NCBI GenBank assembly: GCA_964642155.1
Contig: CAZXNT010000002.1
Coordinates: 1,801-65,800 of the forward strand
DNA length: 64,000 bases
DNA from: an uncultured Candidatus Saccharibacteria bacterium
GTDB taxonomy: Bacteria; Patescibacteriota; Minisyncoccia; UBA6257; UBA9933
Direction of reading: 5' to 3'
Part shown: positions 1 to 13,317 of the stretch, one piece after another
Position numbering within the stretch: position 1 is the stretch's first letter
Layout of the letters: each line of letters starts with the position of its first letter
Notes under the pieces: model-generated
The model's database searches: none
Told to the model about the DNA's origin: nothing
The model's input: the letters and a program-made list of their open reading frames with translations, nothing else
Position numbers and translations under genes: made by a program

Positions 1-827
1 AATATGTTACTGGCGATTTTTCATTAAACGACCGTTTTTTCCATAATCTGACCAAAGAAGAGCAGGATAAAATTTTGGATTATGAATTGATGATCTATTT
101 CTGTGAAGGCACGGACAAGGAGCGACTAGATTGGTTTAGGATTATCAATATAGCAGGTGAAAAACTAACCGACCAAGAAATTCGCAACGCGGTTTATACT
201 GGCCCATGGCTTTCAGACGCAAAATTAAAATTCAGTAAATCAAATTGCGTGGCGTACTTATTGGCAAATGATGGCGGATCGCTTGTCAGTGGCTCACCAA
301 TTCGGCAAGAATATTTAGAAACCGTGCTTTCATGGATCAATGACGGCAAAATTGAAGATTATATGGCTAAGCACCAGCACGACAAAAGTGCAGACGAGCT
401 GTGGAATTATTTCCAAAATGTAGTCGCTTGGGTGCGTAAGACTTTCCCCAATTATCGAAAAGAAATGGCGAGCGTGAGTTGGGGCGAACTATACAACCAA
501 TTCAAAGACAAAAAATTTGATTCAAAGAAACTGGAAAAAGAAATAACCGAGTTAATGCAAGATGAAGATGTAACGAAAAAATCTGGTATTTATCCCTATG
601 TTCTAACGAGACAAGAAAATCACCTTTTTATCCGAATGTTTAATGACAAAATGAAGCGCGAAGCCTACGAAAGACAAAAAGGTAAATGCGTTTGGTGTAA
701 AAAAACTTTTGAATTCGAAGAAATGGAAGCCGATCATATAACCCCTTGGCATGAGGGCGGAAAAACGACTGCAATGAATTGCCAGATGTTATGCAAAGAC
801 GATAATCGAAAAAAATCTGGAAAATAA
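1..827 (+). CDS. HNH endonuclease domain protein, N-terminally truncated by the window edge; the upstream part resembles a DUF262/GmrSD-type region
   Basis: The reading frame stays open back to position 1 (..YVTGDFSLNDRFFH..). The C-terminus has a CxxC...EADHITPWHEGG...NCQMLC..DNRK HNH (beta-beta-alpha-Me, zinc-finger) motif. It is followed 3 nt later by the PHP-ATPase gene. Confidence 0.7.
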   Translation, partial: YVTGDFSLNDRFFHNLTKEEQDKILDYELMIYFCEGTDKERLDWFRIINIAGEKLTDQEIRNAVYTGPWLSDAKLKFSKSNCVAYLLANDGGSLVSGSPIRQEYLETVLSWINDGKIEDYMAKHQHDKSADELWNYFQNVVAWVRKTFPNYRKEMASVSWGELYNQFKDKKFDSKKLEKEITELMQDEDVTKKSGIYPYVLTRQENHLFIRMFNDKMKREAYERQKGKCVWCKKTFEFEEMEADHITPWHEGGKTTAMNCQMLCKDDNRKKSGK

Positions 828-830
828 AAT

Positions 831-3527
831 ATGGCTGACAAAATTACAAAACCGAATATTGGTTCTGAATGGAGGAAATGGGACTTGCATGTGCATAGTC
901 CTGCTTCTGACGGTTTTTCTGGTACTTGGGATCAGTTTGAAGCTCAATTAAAAAACGCCGGATGTGATGTTATCGGAATAAACGACTATTTTTCAGTAGC
1001 TGGTTATAAGCAAATCAAAGAAAAAATCGACAAGGGCAATTTAGATATTGGCGACAAAAAAATTCTTCCTGTTGTTGAATTTCGAATGACGGAAAGTGTG
1101 CAGAATAAAAATACTACAACAAATAGTGCGATACATTTCAACTTTCATATCATTTTTAATGATTCAATAAAAATTGCCGACATTGAAAATCTTATCAAAG
1201 GCTTAAAATGCAATGGAACAAAAATCAGTAGTGATTATGACGATAAAGCCAAACTGAAAGATAAGAAAATTTCTCTTGTTTCCTTGCTTAGTGAACTGAA
1301 TCAAGACGAAAAATTTAAGGACAAGTTTTTGCTATGGCTTCCATATGATGAATACGGTGGAATTGATGAAATTGACCCAAATTCGGATGAATGGATAAAA
1401 AGCAATTATATAAGAACTGCGGATATTTTAGGTTCTTCAAGACAAAAACAAATTGATTTTTTCCTTTGGAAATCAGATTTGAAAACGGATGGCACAGCGA
1501 AATTTACGCAAGATCAATTTCGTGGTTGGTTCTTACGAAAAAAGGCTTGTATAAAAGGGAGCGATTCCCATTCACAGGATTACCCTATTGGTAAATTAAA
1601 GGACAAAGATTCGAAACCAATTGAAAAATATTGCTGGATTAAAGCTGAACCAACATTTGAGGGATTAAAGCAAATTGTTTATGAGCCAGAAACGAGAATT
1701 TTTATCGGTGAAGAAAAACCAAAAAAGCCGATAAATACTATTGATTCAATTACTCTAAAAATTCCTGATGATGCAAAAGTTGACGAAGACAAATTTTGTT
1801 TTGCTGGAAATAACAGCACCTATAATTTAAGCCCATATTTTAATTGTTTTATTGGTGGACGAGGTTCTGGAAAAAGCACTATTTTGAATTTTTTGGGATT
1901 ACATTCGAATAATCCTGATTCGCCAAAGAAATTTTGGGATAATTTATCACCCTCTTTTGATCCAAACGAAAAAAGCAATTTTAATTTTTCTGGAACAGAA
2001 ATTTTTGAGTTTCTTGCACAAAGTGAAATAGAAACATTTGCAAGAGATAAATCAAAATTTACGCAAGCAATTTATGACAGAGCCAATTCCCACGCAGGCA
2101 ATATTTTAGAGGAATACGAGGAAGCGATTGAGTCATTGAAAGGCAAGCTCGGTCAAATTATTCAAGCTGTTTCGGATTTGAAAAATCTTGAGGATCAAAA
2201 AGTTGGAAAAGAAAAAGAAAAAAGAACGCTTGAAAGTAGCGTTAAGGTGTTATCAAGCAAAGAATATAACGAGGTTATTACTGGTATTACAAACAAGTCA
2301 AAAGAATTGCAAAAGTTAGAAGATTGGAAAGAAAATATTTCTGATCTTAAAAACTCTTTGTCTGAACTAATCCCAGAATCTGAATCGGAAGAACCAAAAG
2401 AAAAAGTTGAAAAAACTGAATACGAAAAAGCCTATGATCTTGCAATTACCAAGATCGCCGAAGCGGTTGAATTATTGAAGGAAGAAAAATTTACAGAAGA
2501 GACTAAAAAGGAATCTGAAATTAAAAAAGCTCTGGTTGATTTAGAAAATAAAGCCAAGGCTCTAATTGAGAAAGCTGGTTATACGCCAGAAAGCGTTGAG
2601 CAGATAAAGTCCGCTCCACAAAAAATAACGAACTTAGAGAGCGAAATAAAGAACTTAACGACGCAAATTGAAGCCAAAGCAAAAGTTATCGCAACACGTG
2701 AAAGTGTTGTTAATGGATTAAATACAAATAAACAAAATTACGAAACCAAAATCACTGAAATATTGAAACCTTTGCAGGATTTATTAAAGAAGCAGTTTGA
2801 AGACAATCAAGGAAAAGACATCAAGCAAATCTCTCTCGAATATTCTTTTAACGAAAAAGGTGCTTGGGTTACTTTGGCAGAGGAATTTTACAATCACTTT
2901 TTCTCAAAATACCACGATACGGAACGAGGCAAAGAAGTATGTGAATTTATAACTGGTAATGAGCAGACTTTTTCCAAAAATTCATTTGACGATGTTAGAA
3001 AAATTATTCAACAATCTCAAAAAAACGATAAAAAATACACCAAGTTTCTTGATGAGGTTTTCAAAGAAGAGAAAAATTTTCAAATCTTTCAAGCAATCAG
3101 AGGTAAACACTTATACGATGTAAAGTTAAACAAGATAATTCAAGTTAAATATGATAATCGAGATGTCGAACAAGCGTCTTTCGGACAAAGATGTACGGCG
3201 GTAGTTGTTATTTTGCTTCTGTTTGGAAATTACCCGTTAATTATTGATGAGCCAGAGGCTCATCTTGATAGCTCGTTGATTGCGAATTATCTTGTGCCTT
3301 TGTTGAAAGAGAAAAAATCAGATCGCCAAATTATTTTTGCTACGCATAACGCCAATTTTGTAATCAATGGCGATGCAGAGAAAATTTTCATTTTGAAAAA
3401 TGAATCTGGACAAACAGAAGTTATTGAAACGACAATTGAGGACACAAAAAATAGAGAAGAACTGCTGAAACTTGAAGGCGGAAAAGAGGCATTTGAAAAA
3501 AGAGGAGAAAAGCTTAATATTAAATAA
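831..3527 (+). CDS. PHP-domain phosphoesterase fused to an SMC/Rad50/RecN-like ABC ATPase with an internal coiled coil
   Basis: The N-terminus has a DLHVHSPASDG PHP motif. Walker A GGRGSGKST lies near nt 1855-1885. A KE-rich coiled coil of about 200 aa follows. After it come a divergent signature SFGQR, Walker B/D-loop LIIDEPEAHLD (nt 3235-3270) and H-loop FATHNANF. Confidence 0.7.
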   Translation: MADKITKPNIGSEWRKWDLHVHSPASDGFSGTWDQFEAQLKNAGCDVIGINDYFSVAGYKQIKEKIDKGNLDIGDKKILPVVEFRMTESVQNKNTTTNSAIHFNFHIIFNDSIKIADIENLIKGLKCNGTKISSDYDDKAKLKDKKISLVSLLSELNQDEKFKDKFLLWLPYDEYGGIDEIDPNSDEWIKSNYIRTADILGSSRQKQIDFFLWKSDLKTDGTAKFTQDQFRGWFLRKKACIKGSDSHSQDYPIGKLKDKDSKPIEKYCWIKAEPTFEGLKQIVYEPETRIFIGEEKPKKPINTIDSITLKIPDDAKVDEDKFCFAGNNSTYNLSPYFNCFIGGRGSGKSTILNFLGLHSNNPDSPKKFWDNLSPSFDPNEKSNFNFSGTEIFEFLAQSEIETFARDKSKFTQAIYDRANSHAGNILEEYEEAIESLKGKLGQIIQAVSDLKNLEDQKVGKEKEKRTLESSVKVLSSKEYNEVITGITNKSKELQKLEDWKENISDLKNSLSELIPESESEEPKEKVEKTEYEKAYDLAITKIAEAVELLKEEKFTEETKKESEIKKALVDLENKAKALIEKAGYTPESVEQIKSAPQKITNLESEIKNLTTQIEAKAKVIATRESVVNGLNTNKQNYETKITEILKPLQDLLKKQFEDNQGKDIKQISLEYSFNEKGAWVTLAEEFYNHFFSKYHDTERGKEVCEFITGNEQTFSKNSFDDVRKIIQQSQKNDKKYTKFLDEVFKEEKNFQIFQAIRGKHLYDVKLNKIIQVKYDNRDVEQASFGQRCTAVVVILLLFGNYPLIIDEPEAHLDSSLIANYLVPLLKEKKSDRQIIFATHNANFVINGDAEKIFILKNESGQTEVIETTIEDTKNREELLKLEGGKEAFEKRGEKLNIK

Positions 3528-3570
3528 TCCCGCCGTCCGTCCGCCGAAAAGTTTTGGGGGCGAAGCCCAA

Positions 3571-3693
3571 GCAGGCGGGCAAAAAGGAAGGGGGTTGGGG
3601 GGAAGGAATTTTTGCCCGCCTGCTTCCGTTCCCGTTCCGTTTGAGAAAAGGAAAAGCGGAAGGGGGGTTTGGGGGGAATTCCGCTTTTCCTTT
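3571..3693. repeat. Two adjacent perfect GC-stem hairpins with G-tract loops inside a 600-nt GC-rich non-coding block (3528-4130)
   Basis: Hairpin 1: gcaggcgggcaaaaa [ggaagggggttggggggaaggaa] tttttgcccgcctgc (3571-3623). Hairpin 2: aaaggaaaagcggaa [ggggggtttggggggaa] ttccgcttttccttt (3647-3693). The same block has further perfect inverted repeats, for example cagaaaaatactcttt / aaagagtatttttctg at about 3754-3830. Confidence 0.8.
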
Positions 3694-3893
3694 GCGAAAT
3701 CAAATTGAGGCCAGTCCCGCCACCTGCCTGAATACTTGGAAGGCAGAACACTGCAGAAAAATACTCTTTTCATTAAAAGAAGAAAAAATCGGGCGCGCGC
3801 AAAATGAAAAGAGCAAAGAGTATTTTTCTGTGGTGTGGCGAGCTTGTCGAGCAGTGGCGGGGCTGGCTTCCTTAGTGGGGGTTTTGCTCAAAG

Positions 3894-3924
3894 AAAGTTC
3901 GAACATCATTCAAAAAACACCGCC
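3894..3924. repeat. Dispersed intergenic repeat, copy a (aaagttcgaacatcattcaaaaaacaccgcc)
   Basis: Shares aaagttcgaacatcaWtcaaaaaacaccgcc with copy b. Confidence 0.7.
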
Positions 3925-4132
3925 TTCGCCCGCCATAGCGGGCTTCGGCGGACGCAGTCCGCCGGAGGAACGCGACGGCGGGAAGTGGAACGCAAATGAA
4001 AAGAAAGATAATTTTATGTATATAGTTTACATTTTGAAAATGGCGTTAATAAAAATCCGACCATTGAAACCCTGACCAAGATCGTTAAGGCGTTAGATGT
4101 TGGCGCTTATGATTTAATAAAATAATAATTTT

Positions 4133-4822
4133 ATGATACTTAAAGATAAAATAATTGTAATAACTGGAGCAAGCCAAGGATTTGGTAAGGCACTTGCTAA
4201 AGCACTTAAACAAGAAAATGCTCAAGTTGTCATTTCAAGCCACAATAAGGAAAATTTAGAAGTAACGGCAAAAGAATTATCAGTTGATTGTTTTCTTGCT
4301 GATGTAACTTCTTTTGATAACGTCAAAAAACTTGGCGAATATGTGGTTGAAAAATACGGCAAAATAGATTTTTGGATTAATAATGCTGGTATACAAATTG
4401 CGCCAAGTTTTGTTGAGGAGATTAATATAGAAAAATTGCATTCTCTTTTTGATGTGAACTTTTTCGGATATTTTTATGGTTGTCAGATTGCACTTACACA
4501 AATGAAAAAACAAAATAGTGGAGTAATTATAAATATCAACTCTACCGCTGGGCTGGATGGAAAACCTAGAATATCTGCCTATTCTTCATCAAAATTTGCA
4601 ATCAAAGGATTGACTGAGTCAATCCGCCATGAAATAAAGGATTTAAATATAAAAATGCTTGGCGTATTCCCCGGCGGAATGCAGACTGATATTTACAAAG
4701 AAAAATATCCCGATGACTTAAAAGATTATATGGAAGCTGAAACGGTTGTTGAAAAAGTAATGACCAATTTAAAATCAGAAAATCCTGAAGTTGATTTTGT
4801 AATTAAGCGACCAAGCAAGTAG
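4133..4822 (+). CDS. Short-chain dehydrogenase/reductase (SDR) family oxidoreductase
   Basis: TGASQGFG Rossmann motif, NNAG, and catalytic YSSSK (YxxxK). Confidence 0.85.
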   Translation: MILKDKIIVITGASQGFGKALAKALKQENAQVVISSHNKENLEVTAKELSVDCFLADVTSFDNVKKLGEYVVEKYGKIDFWINNAGIQIAPSFVEEINIEKLHSLFDVNFFGYFYGCQIALTQMKKQNSGVIININSTAGLDGKPRISAYSSSKFAIKGLTESIRHEIKDLNIKMLGVFPGGMQTDIYKEKYPDDLKDYMEAETVVEKVMTNLKSENPEVDFVIKRPSK

Positions 4823-5784: not shown

Positions 5785-5828
5785 CGGGCGGGCGGAAGGG
5801 GGTTTTTGGGGGGAATTCCGCCCGCCCG
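5785..5828. repeat. Third copy of the GC-stem / G-tract-loop hairpin
   Basis: cgggcgggcggaa [gggggtttttggggggaa] ttccgcccgcccg. It has the same architecture as 3571-3623 and 3647-3693. Confidence 0.8.
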
Positions 5829-5869
5829 AGCGGAATTTTCAAAATTCAGCGTTCGTATTTTCGTTAAAA

Positions 5870-5904
5870 AAAGTTCGAACATCAATCAAAAAACACCGCC
5901 AATT
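5870..5904. repeat. Dispersed intergenic repeat, copy b
   Basis: aaagttcgaacatcaatcaaaaaacaccgccaatt. Confidence 0.7.
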
Positions 5905-8426: not shown

Positions 8427-8454
8427 TCATTTGGATTTTGCTCGAAATAGTTTA

Positions 8455-8500
8455 GAACTTCGTTCAAAAAACACCGCCAATTTTCAGAATTCTGATTTTA
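8455..8500. repeat. Dispersed intergenic repeat, copy d (the most complete copy)
   Basis: gaacttcgttcaaaaaacaccgccaattttcagaattctgatttta. Confidence 0.7.
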
Positions 8501-10734: not shown

Positions 10735-13317
10735 ATGACTAAATTTGAAATAAATCACAATATAGATGCGGAAGAAGGATTACCCGATACTGAAATGGCC
10801 CGAAAATTTCAGGAGGCGGTCAAAAAGAAAAAAGCCGAAAACAACCTAGATTATAAAGGCGATAATCCAGAAACATCAAAAGAAGTTATTCATGATTTGG
10901 GTGTTTTTGGTGTTTATGGAGAGTTGGAAGAAAAAGCGGAAGAACCAAAGTCGCAAGAGCAAATGGAAGATGATTTAATTAAAGCTGCTTTGGGCGAAAA
11001 TGTTTTTGAAAGACCTGATAAGGAATTGGAAAAATCAAAACCGCATTATAAAGATGCTTATGATGAGCAGATAGTGTCAATGACGTTAAAATTAAAAGGA
11101 TTAGAGAATCCATCAGAACTATTTAATAAAAAGGCCACTGCGGAACAAAAAGAAGAACGCCAAAAATTAATAGAAACATTAAAACACGGTATTGAAGAAG
11201 CGAAATTAAGAAAAGAGAAAATCGGTAAAAAGATTAAAGATAAAAAACCCGAAAGAACGGAAATAAAATCAAAGCAGCCGGGTAAAAAAGAAAAACATTA
11301 TATTTATAAAGAAGTAAACAGGCTTGGAGAAAATATTGGTTTGGTAAAAAAAGAGCTTAGAGAAGCAAAAACCGATGAAGAAAAGAAAATAGCTAGGGCA
11401 AAACTTGAATCTTCTATTACAGAATTTGAAAAATCCAAAGAAGCGTGGAATAGAATCAAAGATTCGTCAAAAATCAGCGGGAAAAAAGAAACAAAAATTC
11501 GTTCGCAGGTTGAAATTGACACCGCTGAAAGTCAGTTAAAGACTTATGGTAAAAAATTTTTAACGGAAGAGAGCACTCCGGAAGATTTAAAAGAATTTAT
11601 TAGTAAAGAAAAAGAAATAAAACGCGAACAAAAAACGCAAAAAGAAAATGTGTCTGATTTAACCATGTCTAAAGGCCGTCAAGAAGAAATTAATAAAGTT
11701 TGGCAGAAAGAAGTTTTAAATAATGAAAAAGAAGGAGAAAAATTTGATTTAACAACTCCCGAAGGACGTCAAAAAGAAATTGAAAGAGTTCAACAAGAAG
11801 AAGCGGAAAAACTTTTAACTGCGGCTGATAAACAAGAAGAAAAAATAGAAGAAGAAATTAAACAGGAAAAATCTTGGATTAGGGAAAAAGTTGAAAAAAC
11901 GGCGAATTGGTATAAAAAACAGCCATTATGGAAGAAAGTTTTATTTTCATTCAGTTGTATTGGTGTGGCTTCGGCGTCAGCGACGCTTGGCGGAGCGGCA
12001 GGCGCGACGATTGCGGCAGCGGCTTTTACGGGCAGTATCGGCCAAAGAGCGTTGGGAGGATTGGCAACTTTTATAACAGTTGAAGGAGTATTAAAAAAAT
12101 CCGCAGAAAAAGGCGGGAAAGAAAGAACTAAGGCGGAAGCCGCAAGGCATACAGTTGAAGCGGCTGTTCTTGGATTACTTGTTGGCAGTGGTCAATTCGC
12201 GCGAGGCGTAAAAGAGATTGCCGATGTTACGGGAGCAAGTGATTTATTAAAGAATGCTTATGAATTTTGGATTCCCAAATCGGAGATTAAAATAATGCCT
12301 TCTATTAAAATGTCCCCAGAAGAATTTCACAATCGATATCCTGGTTTAAAATATAGCACAGGGATTGAAGATGCTGATATAAAATTAAAGGCGGCAATTG
12401 GAGTAGAAGCGTCTCAACCAATAGCACCAGTCGAAGAATTAAAAGCAAATGTTTTAGAAATAGGCGACCGCGGGCCCGAAGGTGCGATTATTGATTATTT
12501 TGGAGAAAATCCGGATATTGCCGTTGAAAAATTTGGTTGTCCAAAAGAATTATACGGTCCTAATGGAGAAATTACTGATTTAGATAAATTTAACGAATGG
12601 GCGGGAATAAAAGCTCATCAATTATGGTTGGCAGACGCCAAAGAAGCATTAACAAAACCGGAAACATTGGGGAAATTAAAAGAACTTGGTTATCCGCAAG
12701 ACGCGGAGGGTTATGCCAAAATGATGCATCGTATTGGCAAAGGTTCTGTTGAACTTGATTTTAAAACCGGAAAGATTAATTTAGCGAATGATACGGAATA
12801 TTTAAAGGCGCGGATAGATGCCGGAAAAGGCGGTCAACTATTAGTGGATAAAACTCACGGTGGTGGCATAAAAGTTCCTCCGGAATATTTTGACGGAAGT
12901 AAAAAAATGCTTTACGAGGAAGATATAGATAGGTTAAATAAAAAATATTCAGGTACTATCAAAACAAGTGAAAATAGCAATGTTGGCGTTTTTGATAATG
13001 TAAAAAATTGGCTTGAAAATAAAGCTAAAATTGATGTTAAAAAATCTTCTTGGCTGACGGAAAAATTTTTGGGTAATCACAAGGTGGGCGAGATTTTAGA
13101 CCCTGGATTTGCGAAACCTCAGGGCGTTGAGGCGTATACAACTGCGGAGCCGGAATACGGAAGTCCGCAATGGTGGGAATTGAAAGAAAAATCCGGATTA
13201 CAAAATCAAATCGGAAAAATTTTAAGAAGCATGCCAATTGGAGAAAGGGCGAAGTTTCAAAATGTTTCAGTTATTAATTTCTTAAAAGAATACATTGGCG
13301 CTGGCGATAAAAAATAA
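10735..13317 (+). CDS. Large hypothetical protein: KE-rich N-terminal half, a Gly/Ala-rich hydrophobic segment, and a C-terminal globular region
   Basis: 860 aa. Central hydrophobic segment FSFSCIGVASASATLGGAAGATIAAAAFTGSIG. No recognisable catalytic motif. Confidence 0.5.
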   Translation: MTKFEINHNIDAEEGLPDTEMARKFQEAVKKKKAENNLDYKGDNPETSKEVIHDLGVFGVYGELEEKAEEPKSQEQMEDDLIKAALGENVFERPDKELEKSKPHYKDAYDEQIVSMTLKLKGLENPSELFNKKATAEQKEERQKLIETLKHGIEEAKLRKEKIGKKIKDKKPERTEIKSKQPGKKEKHYIYKEVNRLGENIGLVKKELREAKTDEEKKIARAKLESSITEFEKSKEAWNRIKDSSKISGKKETKIRSQVEIDTAESQLKTYGKKFLTEESTPEDLKEFISKEKEIKREQKTQKENVSDLTMSKGRQEEINKVWQKEVLNNEKEGEKFDLTTPEGRQKEIERVQQEEAEKLLTAADKQEEKIEEEIKQEKSWIREKVEKTANWYKKQPLWKKVLFSFSCIGVASASATLGGAAGATIAAAAFTGSIGQRALGGLATFITVEGVLKKSAEKGGKERTKAEAARHTVEAAVLGLLVGSGQFARGVKEIADVTGASDLLKNAYEFWIPKSEIKIMPSIKMSPEEFHNRYPGLKYSTGIEDADIKLKAAIGVEASQPIAPVEELKANVLEIGDRGPEGAIIDYFGENPDIAVEKFGCPKELYGPNGEITDLDKFNEWAGIKAHQLWLADAKEALTKPETLGKLKELGYPQDAEGYAKMMHRIGKGSVELDFKTGKINLANDTEYLKARIDAGKGGQLLVDKTHGGGIKVPPEYFDGSKKMLYEEDIDRLNKKYSGTIKTSENSNVGVFDNVKNWLENKAKIDVKKSSWLTEKFLGNHKVGEILDPGFAKPQGVEAYTTAEPEYGSPQWWELKEKSGLQNQIGKILRSMPIGERAKFQNVSVINFLKEYIGAGDKK

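Follow-up and report, generated by a model that had tools for sequence, protein, structure and literature searches.

The 64,000-nucleotide (nt) stretch of DNA that is analysed here (hereafter, the window; contig CAZXNT010000002.1 of an uncultured Candidatus Saccharibacteria bacterium) begins with two co-oriented genes that are separated by 3 nt: the 3' part of a gene for a predicted HNH restriction endonuclease, and a complete gene, which we refer to as trlF, for a protein of 898 amino acids (aa) in which a PHP domain is fused to an ATPase of the SMC/Rad50 type. Coordinates are positions of the window, unless they follow a locus name; L001, L003 and similar names denote loci of homologues that have been collected for comparison. 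Frame 3 is open from base 3 to the TAA at 825-827, followed by the spacer AAT and by the ATG at 831, and the second open reading frame (ORF) ends at 3527. An HNH gene followed at 3 nt by a co-oriented PHP/ATPase gene is also what an earlier note on this DNA had described, and the ORF coordinates (3-827 and 831-3527) confirm it. The features of the locus are the following:

1..827, + strand: 3' part of the predicted restriction endonuclease gene (274 of 363 codons, frame from base 3), with an N-terminal DUF262/GmrSD_N (ParB-like) domain and a C-terminal HNH domain
831..3527, + strand: trlF-like gene for a protein of 898 aa, with a PHP phosphoesterase/nuclease joined to an SMC/Rad50-like ABC ATPase
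861..1730, + strand: PHP domain (residues ~11-300), putative metal ligands H20, H22, D52, E83, H106, D245 and H247
1731..2048, + strand: beta-rich linker and N-terminal half of the ATPase head (secondary structure from AlphaFold2), with the Walker A motif GGRGSGKST (nt 1854-1880) and then the Q-loop Q397, both invariant in 78 homologues
2049..2804, + strand: antiparallel coiled-coil insertion (residues 407-658), its apex (513-529) disordered and acidic, with neither a CxxC zinc hook nor an SMC hinge
2805..3524, + strand: C-terminal half of the ATPase head, with the signature SFGQR (nt 3177-3191), the Walker B/D-loop LIIDEPEAHLD (nt 3237-3269) and the H-loop H839; Pfam AAA_21, 5.7e-13
3528..3924, no strand: right arm of a 397-bp inverted repeat, its first base directly after the trlF stop codon

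The genes that precede position 1 are seen in L001, a 5.3-kb contig from a public run that encodes exactly the same 898-aa protein, is 100% identical to positions 1-900 of the window and reaches 1775 bases to the left of its start. L001 carries four co-directional genes with gaps of 4, 1 and 3 nt: a helix-turn-helix (HTH) controller (C), an EcoRI-like methylase (M), the DUF262-HNH endonuclease (R) and the trlF-like gene; a promoter-like site of the sigma-70 type (TTGACT-17-TATACT) is located ~60 nt upstream of the C gene. Positions 1-3527 are the last two genes of this tightly packed C-M-R-trlF operon, and L001 also completes the truncated first gene to a protein of 363 aa.

The C protein of L001 (69 aa, HTH_3, of the XRE/HTH type) matches the PADLOC model Control_protein (7.4e-12), and the M protein (362 aa, an N6-adenine methyltransferase) matches Pfam EcoRI_methylase (3.2e-132) and PADLOC MTase_II (5.8e-119). 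The R protein (L001 1511-2602) matches Pfam GmrSD_N (5.6e-17), which bears out the DUF262-like N-terminal part that the earlier note had read in the first gene, as well as Pfam HNH (9.2e-12), and is matched from end to end by the PADLOC model REase_II PDLC03418 (2.9e-132). The fragment that lies within the window retains the HNH match (6.2e-12, residues 229-272) and a weak match to the end of GmrSD_N/DUF262, with the DGQQR motif located just upstream of the window edge. Adjacent methyltransferase and endonuclease genes, here with the optional controller, are the arrangement of a type II restriction-modification (R-M) system.

The restriction-enzyme family has been surveyed by scoring 8000 candidates, all with E <= 1e-10, and by listing the 120 best clusters: the family has at least 8000 members, and the best 120 clusters are 83-100% identical and occur in Patescibacteria, Margulisiibacteriota, Chloroflexota and Zixibacteria. 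An EcoRI-like methylase is located directly 5' of the R gene, or with one small ORF between them, in every locus that has upstream sequence (L100-L117), while most loci with this restriction enzyme have no PHP-ATPase downstream (L102-L119). In two further loci (L100 2480-4303 and L101 2320-2886), the same C-M-R genes are followed, in the position of trlF, by a 607-aa OLD/GajA/AriA-like ABC-TOPRIM ATPase. M and R are an obligate pair, the fourth gene is an exchangeable add-on, and different ABC-ATPase nucleases can occupy its place in the operon. Since the HNH gene is constantly found beside the methylase and usually without a PHP-ATPase, its product is predicted to be the restriction endonuclease of a C-M-R type II system and not the partner of the ATPase; the two-gene HNH-ATPase module of the earlier note does not hold in that form.

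The protein encoded by trlF scores 461.3 bits against the NCBIfam model NF045780, named “TrlF family AAA-like ATPase” (cutoff 350), with residues 11-895 aligned to positions 2-943 of the 944 of the model; ten homologues from close and distant clades score 443-510 bits against the same model, with all of the distant members tested passing the cutoff. Against the Ppl model NF042955, whose equivalog cutoff is 1000, it scores 144.9 bits in three stretches (2.4e-42); against the PADLOC Ppl model PDLC02208, 120.6 bits (1.5e-35), with the best stretch covering only residues 777-894; against Spaf_1101, likewise a sister family, 122 bits (cutoff 475); and against the NCBIfam SMC model, 15 bits (cutoff 567). 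Because 145 bits stand against an equivalog cutoff of 1000, the protein is classified by these profiles as a member of the TrlF family and as a distant homologue of Ppl, in a sister family rather than in Ppl itself. The fusion of a PHP domain to such an ATPase is therefore a known architecture.

The sole Pfam match of the 898-aa protein is AAA_21; the PHP family PF02811 has no match in it at E <= 0.1, and is on record, as a precomputed match, for the divergent homologues P0094 and P0118 only. The PHP assignment of the window protein rests, for this reason, on its fold, on its conserved metal ligands and on the matches of these two homologues. The PHP motif WDLHVHSPASDG is located at residues 17-28, and all seven metal ligands (HxH...D...E...H...DxH) are present; among 78 homologues, they are retained in 70 (H20), 72 (H22), 64 (D52), 75 (E83), 70 (H106), 78 (D245) and 72 (H247). 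In 6-8 of the 78 homologues (alignment A3), HxH is replaced by QxQ and H247 by arginine, with all the ATPase motifs kept; these homologues appear, from the substituted ligands, to form a subclade in which the PHP site is dead.

The motifs of the ATPase, i.e. Walker A (residues 342-350), Q397, SFGQR (783-787), LIIDEPEAHLD (803-813) and H839, are invariant in the 78 homologues, and this full motif set, with a coiled coil between the two halves of the head, is that of an SMC/Rad50-like ABC ATPase. In the AlphaFold2 model built on the 78 homologues (predicted local distance difference test score, 86.9; predicted template modelling score, 0.72), residues 1-300 form an alpha/beta domain with the PHP barrel fold, and two long helices (407-512 and 530-658) form a coiled coil of ~250 aa, or ~125 residues per arm, between the ATPase halves. 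The motifs, the metal ligands and the modelled fold support the fusion as the earlier note had described it, including the coiled coil that splits the ATPase, whose length it had put slightly too low, at roughly 200 aa. The apex of the coiled coil (513-529, SELIPESESEEPKEKVE) contains no cysteine, and hence no CxxC zinc hook of the kind found in Rad50, SbcC and RloC. In fold comparison, the PHP domain is similar to the DNA endonuclease EndoQ and to the proofreading PHP domains of polymerases, and the ATPase resembles the heads of Rad50, SbcC, RecN and Smc; sequence searches of the Protein Data Bank, with the protein and with the 78-sequence profile, gave marginal matches to generic ABC or coiled-coil proteins only, and no Ppl or TrlF structure.

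The most conserved segment of TrlF is the C-terminal half of the ATPase, which is 97-98% identical in L003, L007 and L088, and the least conserved segment is the coiled coil. The divergence is unevenly spread along individual homologues: compared with the window protein, L007 is 36% identical in the PHP domain, 84-97% elsewhere and 97% in the C-terminal ATPase, and for L005 the identity is 81% (PHP domain), 38% (coiled coil) and 83% (C-terminal ATPase). The mosaic pattern in L005, L007 and L010 suggests recombination between diverged variants inside the gene, as is expected for a gene under phage-driven selection. A 95%-identical copy of trlF at L093 is broken by a ~1.2-kb insertion (~665-1885), which contains a 290-aa ORF on the opposite strand.

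The genomic context of trlF has been compared in 80 loci from genomes and 14 loci from metagenomes, with additional look-ups of individual homologues; the ORFs next to trlF were called and then classified by seed searches and by Pfam and PADLOC. The clade of the window protein, defined by at least 40% identity to it, is represented by 23 informative loci, and 18 of these have an R-M gene immediately upstream of trlF on the same strand, with a gap of -26 to +12 nt in 17 of the 18. Across these 18 loci, the R-M operons that end in trlF, or contain it, have at least seven architectures:

C-M-R(HNH), type II: L001, and L017, a divergent locus in an Acetivibrio metagenome-assembled genome
Controller, HsdR-like protein and N6_Mtase::Methylase_S fusion: L003, L010, L086-L089, L091 and L098
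HsdR-HsdM-HsdS, classical: L005 and L006
hsdM-trlF-hsdS-hsdR, with trlF embedded: L090
Type IIG Eco57I/MmeI-like enzyme: L007, with a 343-nt gap
TaqI_C-bearing enzyme: L009
Type III mod-trlF-...-res: L015, with res two genes downstream

These seven architectures show repeated, independent pairings of trlF with R-M systems. The exceptions within the clade are L004, L012, L013 and L097, whose neighbours are uninformative, and L014, where trlF is located beside a defence-like pair of PLD and SNF2 genes. The TrlF family is distributed patchily across many phyla, and a single TrlF relative has been found among 2.9 million viral contigs; we have counted this near-absence in favour of host-side defence.

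The exchange of the R-M genes next to a conserved trlF can be followed at the DNA level, by comparing the composite of L001 and the window with L003 (genome CP064996.1, 943 kb) and with the metagenomic contigs L088 and L089. The sequences are 91-94% identical from upstream of the C gene to 6 nt into the methylase gene; the R-M core has no DNA similarity to any of the three; and an identity of 88-89% resumes 2 nt before the ATG of trlF and continues through position 3924. At the protein level, identity to the nearest relatives is 97-99% for C and ~93% for TrlF, with M and R(HNH) in the window and L001 standing in the place of HsdR and the M::S fusion in L003 and L088. The conserved chassis consists of the C gene, trlF and the 397-bp repeat, and the R-M core that it carries has been exchanged.

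The island from the controller to TrlF is exactly bracketed, in L003 as in L088, by both arms of the repeat (L003 2850-3246 and 10697-11093, 99.2% identical; L088 1761-2157 and 9697-10093, 100% identical). The block at 3528-3924 of the window is 94-95% identical to the left arms of these relatives; the repeat-laden non-coding block of the earlier note is accordingly real, and turns out to be one arm of an inverted repeat. The first 30 nt of L001 are the exact reverse complement of positions 3528-3557, i.e. L001 starts within a left arm, at which the short-read assembly broke, and the genome of the window very probably has the same bracket. Possible roles of the repeat include a substrate for inversion or mobilisation and a dispersed intergenic repeat; no Rfam family was matched in the non-coding block or in the window as a whole, and no terminator was found in 3400-4200.

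Large serine recombinase genes are located just outside the R-M-TrlF island of several relatives, and in L003 and L088 each of them is framed by its own ~133-bp inverted repeats:

L003 995-2608: large serine recombinase, beside tRNA-Ser (1022-1111)
L088 2-1519 and 10077-11729: large serine recombinases, on both sides of the island
L005 10748-12100: large serine recombinase, beside tRNA-Glu (12277-12349)

A recombinase that adjoins a tRNA gene is typical of integrative islands. Because the island of the relatives is bracketed by the inverted repeat and located beside a serine recombinase and a tRNA gene, the C-RM-TrlF unit is a mobile defence island; the defence setting that the earlier note had suspected is thus upheld by the flanks of the relatives, and by the occurrence of the TrlF family in many phyla, with mobility as a further property. 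A tblastn search found no serine recombinase in the window, and the left flank lies beyond it.

A few observations concern the sequence to the right of the island. A ~45-nt motif ending in GTTCGAACATCATTCAAAAAACACCGCC, which is located outermost in the repeat arm (3882-3924), recurs at 5858-5900 and 8433-8486, and a G-rich piece, GGGGGGAATTCCGC, is found at 3662-3684 and again at 5799-5821; the two look like a dispersed intergenic repeat family. At positions 4030-4125, an XRE/HTH_3 gene is reduced to its last ~28 codons (ENGVNKNPTIETLTKIVKALDVGAYDLIK*), with stop codons before them; the fragment resembles the C-terminus of the island controller and may be a remnant of an older controller-led operon at the right border of the island.

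From the identities of the genes, the layout of the operon, the mobility of the island and the recurrent R-M linkage, we infer how the four genes might act together: on balance, and with an only slight preponderance of belief over doubt, the best explanation of the locus as a whole is a C-M-R type II operon with an appended Ppl-like TrlF protein that degrades the DNA ends created by restriction. The methylase would mark the host DNA, and the HNH enzyme would cut invader DNA that lacks the methylation; TrlF, whose expression would depend on the same C-controlled promoter, would load on the new ends through its SMC-like head and coiled coil, and its PHP site would degrade the DNA exonucleolytically, in the 3'-5' direction if it acts as reported for Ppl. 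Restriction would thereby become irreversible, with repair of the cut phage genome blocked, a post-restriction role analogous to the one that RecBCD plays in E. coli (PMC12707154). The published accounts of Ppl (PMC12904381; Xu et al., Mol Cell 2026, as cited in PMC13434339) describe a 3'-5' exonuclease of single-stranded DNA that is triggered by 3'-OH DNA ends together with depletion of nucleoside triphosphates, the latter inhibiting the nuclease when bound at the PHP and NTPase domains. A nuclease and end-binding activity of TrlF is plausible by analogy, as the PHP site is intact and most similar to PHP enzymes that act on DNA, and the ATPase is similar to heads that clamp DNA. The coupling between restriction and TrlF would run through the DNA substrate and not through a specific contact between proteins: a TrlF protein that remains ~93% identical beside wholly different R-M enzymes makes a dedicated interface unlikely and a shared substrate, i.e. 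DNA ends, likelier. As a lead only, many of the HNH-type type II enzymes, such as KpnI, SphI, NlaIII, PacI and Hpy99I, leave 3' overhangs, which would suit a trigger of the Ppl type.

Several points weigh against this explanation. Both the exonuclease activity of TrlF and the polarity assumed for it are carried over from Ppl, a distant homologue (145 bits against the cutoff of 1000), and the upstream part of the operon is inferred from an identical contig of another assembly and not read within the window. The R-M-linked loci include many metagenomic variants that are close relatives of one another, so that the independent events are fewer than 18. Distant TrlF proteins (30-35% identity; Bacteroidota, Campylobacterota, Bacillus and Burkholderia plasmids) are usually encoded alone, with an R-M gene upstream in 3 of 31, and the homologues on plasmids are distant and mostly stand-alone as well; tight R-M linkage is a trait of the subclade of the window and not of the whole TrlF family. 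From this habit of the wider family it follows that TrlF needs no R-M system, and that the linkage could reflect co-transfer or co-regulation only. Lastly, palindrome avoidance in the 64-kb window does not reveal the recognition site of the HNH enzyme: GAATTC is not avoided (23 observed, 31 expected), nor are CAATTG and AATT. The under-represented 4-mer palindromes in positions 1-64000 are GATC (59 observed, 176 expected), GGCC (96 and 210) and TCGA (60 and 145), and their avoidance suggests long-term exposure to R-M systems of those specificities, with no tie to the present system.

The main rival takes the stand-alone habit at face value: TrlF would be a complete single-gene defence with a trigger of its own, sharing the operon for the sake of co-transfer and of the C promoter, without any cooperation. 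This we regard as a real though less probable alternative, at something under one chance in three. Ppl acts as a single gene (PMC11482910, PMC12904381), most of the distant TrlF homologues stand alone in varied contexts, and the same C-M-R genes carry an OLD/GajA-like ATPase (L100) or no fourth gene at all. The clustering of defence genes in islands, however, does not predict same-strand gaps of -26 to +12 nt at 17 loci and in at least seven unrelated architectures, nor does it predict the insertion of trlF between hsdM and hsdS (L090) or between mod and res (L015).

In a second alternative, which follows the logic of PrrC and RloC and which we consider improbable, TrlF would be a guardian that is kept inactive by the R-M enzyme and freed by an anti-restriction protein of the phage, leading to abortive infection. 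TrlF shares with PrrC the combination of an ABC ATPase and a nuclease in linkage to R-M genes, at L090 even inside a type I locus, and the precedent is well described (PMC2610378, PMC3458546, PMC12707154); silencing of the PrrC type, however, requires a specific contact, while ~93%-identical TrlF proteins are located beside R-M enzymes as unrelated as type II HNH, type I-like, type IIG and type III, and both the domain order and the nuclease are unlike those of PrrC and RloC, with no anticodon-nuclease domain.

An obligate system of two genes, HNH and PHP-ATPase, whether of Septu-like logic or as a single-chain SbcCD analogue with an accessory nuclease, is very improbable. It would account for the 3-nt gap, for the same restriction-enzyme family preceding trlF in the second, divergent locus L017, and for weak matches to PtuB and PtuA; the constant neighbour of the HNH gene, however, is the methylase and not trlF, the nearest TrlF relatives (L003, L088) have no HNH gene at all, and the PtuB match (6.5e-5) spans just 36 residues at the HNH motif, next to a PtuA match of 0.011. 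Equally remote is a housekeeping role, in which the PHP-ATPase would be the SbcCD/RecN-type double-strand-break enzyme of the organism with an R-M system next to it by chance: the likeness of its head to those of Rad50, SbcC, RecN and Smc favours such a role, which the patchy cross-phylum distribution, the mosaic domain evolution, the position on an inverted-repeat-bracketed island beside serine recombinases and tRNA genes, the lack of synteny between close relatives (window and L003) and the 15 bits against the SMC cutoff of 567 all contradict.

To return to the preferred explanation, restriction followed by TrlF-mediated degradation, a broader form of it can be offered tentatively, as a possibility that we would sooner doubt than adopt: in this clade, TrlF may be a dedicated “restriction finisher”, a PHP exonuclease that loads on ends and is recruited as the last cistron by R-M systems of any type for the destruction of the fragments that they produce, while the chassis of C, trlF and repeat takes swapped R-M cores through recombination at gene boundaries.

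Both proteins belong to known families, and neither a new fold nor a new family is involved; what may be new is the R-M-linked trlF on a chassis with a swappable core. In the literature that we have searched, we have found no description of R-M operons of several types that end, as a standard, in a gene for a Ppl-like PHP-SMC nuclease, none of a chassis of controller, TrlF and inverted repeat with an exchangeable R-M core, and no experimental work on the TrlF family, “TrlF” denoting there an unrelated tropolone-biosynthesis gene or a spectroscopy acronym. The locus matters in that a Ppl-like exonuclease-ATPase, hitherto described as a single-gene defence, is a hard-wired final cistron in restriction operons of type I, II, IIG and III. 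Were the coupling functional, two layers of defence would cooperate through a DNA intermediate, with restriction making the ends and TrlF consuming them, and a trigger for the TrlF family would be suggested. The chassis with its swappable core would be a natural example of cassette exchange in the defence islands of small-genome (Patescibacteria-like) bacteria; if this view is true, it would be a modular platform on which the restriction specificity is changed while the regulation and the downstream effector are kept.

The comparison with known systems concerns each of the two proteins. The R protein resembles the DUF262 nucleases of the GmrSD/BrxU type (type IV restriction), which likewise combine an N-terminal DUF262/ParB-like domain bearing DGQQR with a His-Me finger nuclease; its C-terminal domain, in contrast, is a classical HNH (PF01844), and DUF1524 has no match in it. 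The GmrSD reading has been rejected on the lack of DUF1524, the paired adenine methylase and the end-to-end match to the REase_II model, which is derived from REBASE (2.9e-132); the pairing with the methylase and the full-length match argue that R acts as the nuclease of a methylation-protected R-M system and not as a modification-dependent enzyme.

For the TrlF protein, the readings as Septu, SbcCD, RecN/RecF and histidinol phosphatase have been rejected on profile scores or on missing defining domains. The Septu-like logic of the earlier note fails in that the PtuB and PtuA matches are marginal and reflect generic motifs only, PtuB being matched around the HNH motif, and in that the gene order is reversed; the note had also named an ordinary RecN/RecF, a histidinol phosphatase and core-genome conservation as findings that would speak against it, and none of the three emerged from the profile searches and the context survey. 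The logic of TrlF is similar to that of SbcCD (Mre11-Rad50), but its nuclease is a PHP domain instead of the calcineurin-like fold of Mre11, in a single chain; its coiled coil is short and without a zinc hook, the gene is mobile and non-core, and no calcineurin-like phosphoesterase of the Mre11 type was found in the protein or in the operon. OLD, GajA of Gabija and AriA of PARIS also combine an ABC ATPase with a nuclease as a defence effector, but their nuclease is a C-terminal TOPRIM domain and a long coiled coil is absent from them, and TrlF matches them via generic AAA_21 motifs only.

PrrC and RloC are similar to TrlF in the fusion of an ABC ATPase to a nuclease and in their location at or inside R-M loci, and RloC also has a Rad50-like coiled coil (PMC2610378, PMC3458546). 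They differ in having a C-terminal anticodon nuclease that cuts tRNA, for which TrlF has no match among the Pfam, PADLOC and NCBIfam profiles, and, in RloC, a zinc hook, while TrlF has an N-terminal PHP domain and no CxxC hook; PrrC and RloC are linked to type I R-M, whereas the linkage of TrlF spans many R-M types and not one cognate enzyme. A small, conserved neighbourhood of another kind is seen at six Helicobacter pylori loci (L030, L052, L054, L058, L065 and L084), where TrlF is preceded by a ~430-aa ORF and followed by ORFs of ~305-320 aa and ~212-216 aa; the ~430-aa and ~305-aa ORFs of L052, the two that were scanned, have no PADLOC match.

The closest known relatives are Ppl and the TrlF family. 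Ppl, an anti-phage protein of E. coli, has its PHP and ATPase domains in a single polypeptide, as TrlF does, with detectable homology between the two; Ppl has been described as a single-gene system, while the trlF gene of the window is the last cistron of an R-M operon. The members of the TrlF family (NF045780), a name that PGAP applies to homologues on plasmids of Burkholderia, Rhizobium and Companilactobacillus, have the same length as the window protein and the same order of PHP domain, Walker A, coiled coil and signature/Walker B; it is by its tight linkage to R-M operons that the subclade of the window is set apart from the family at large.

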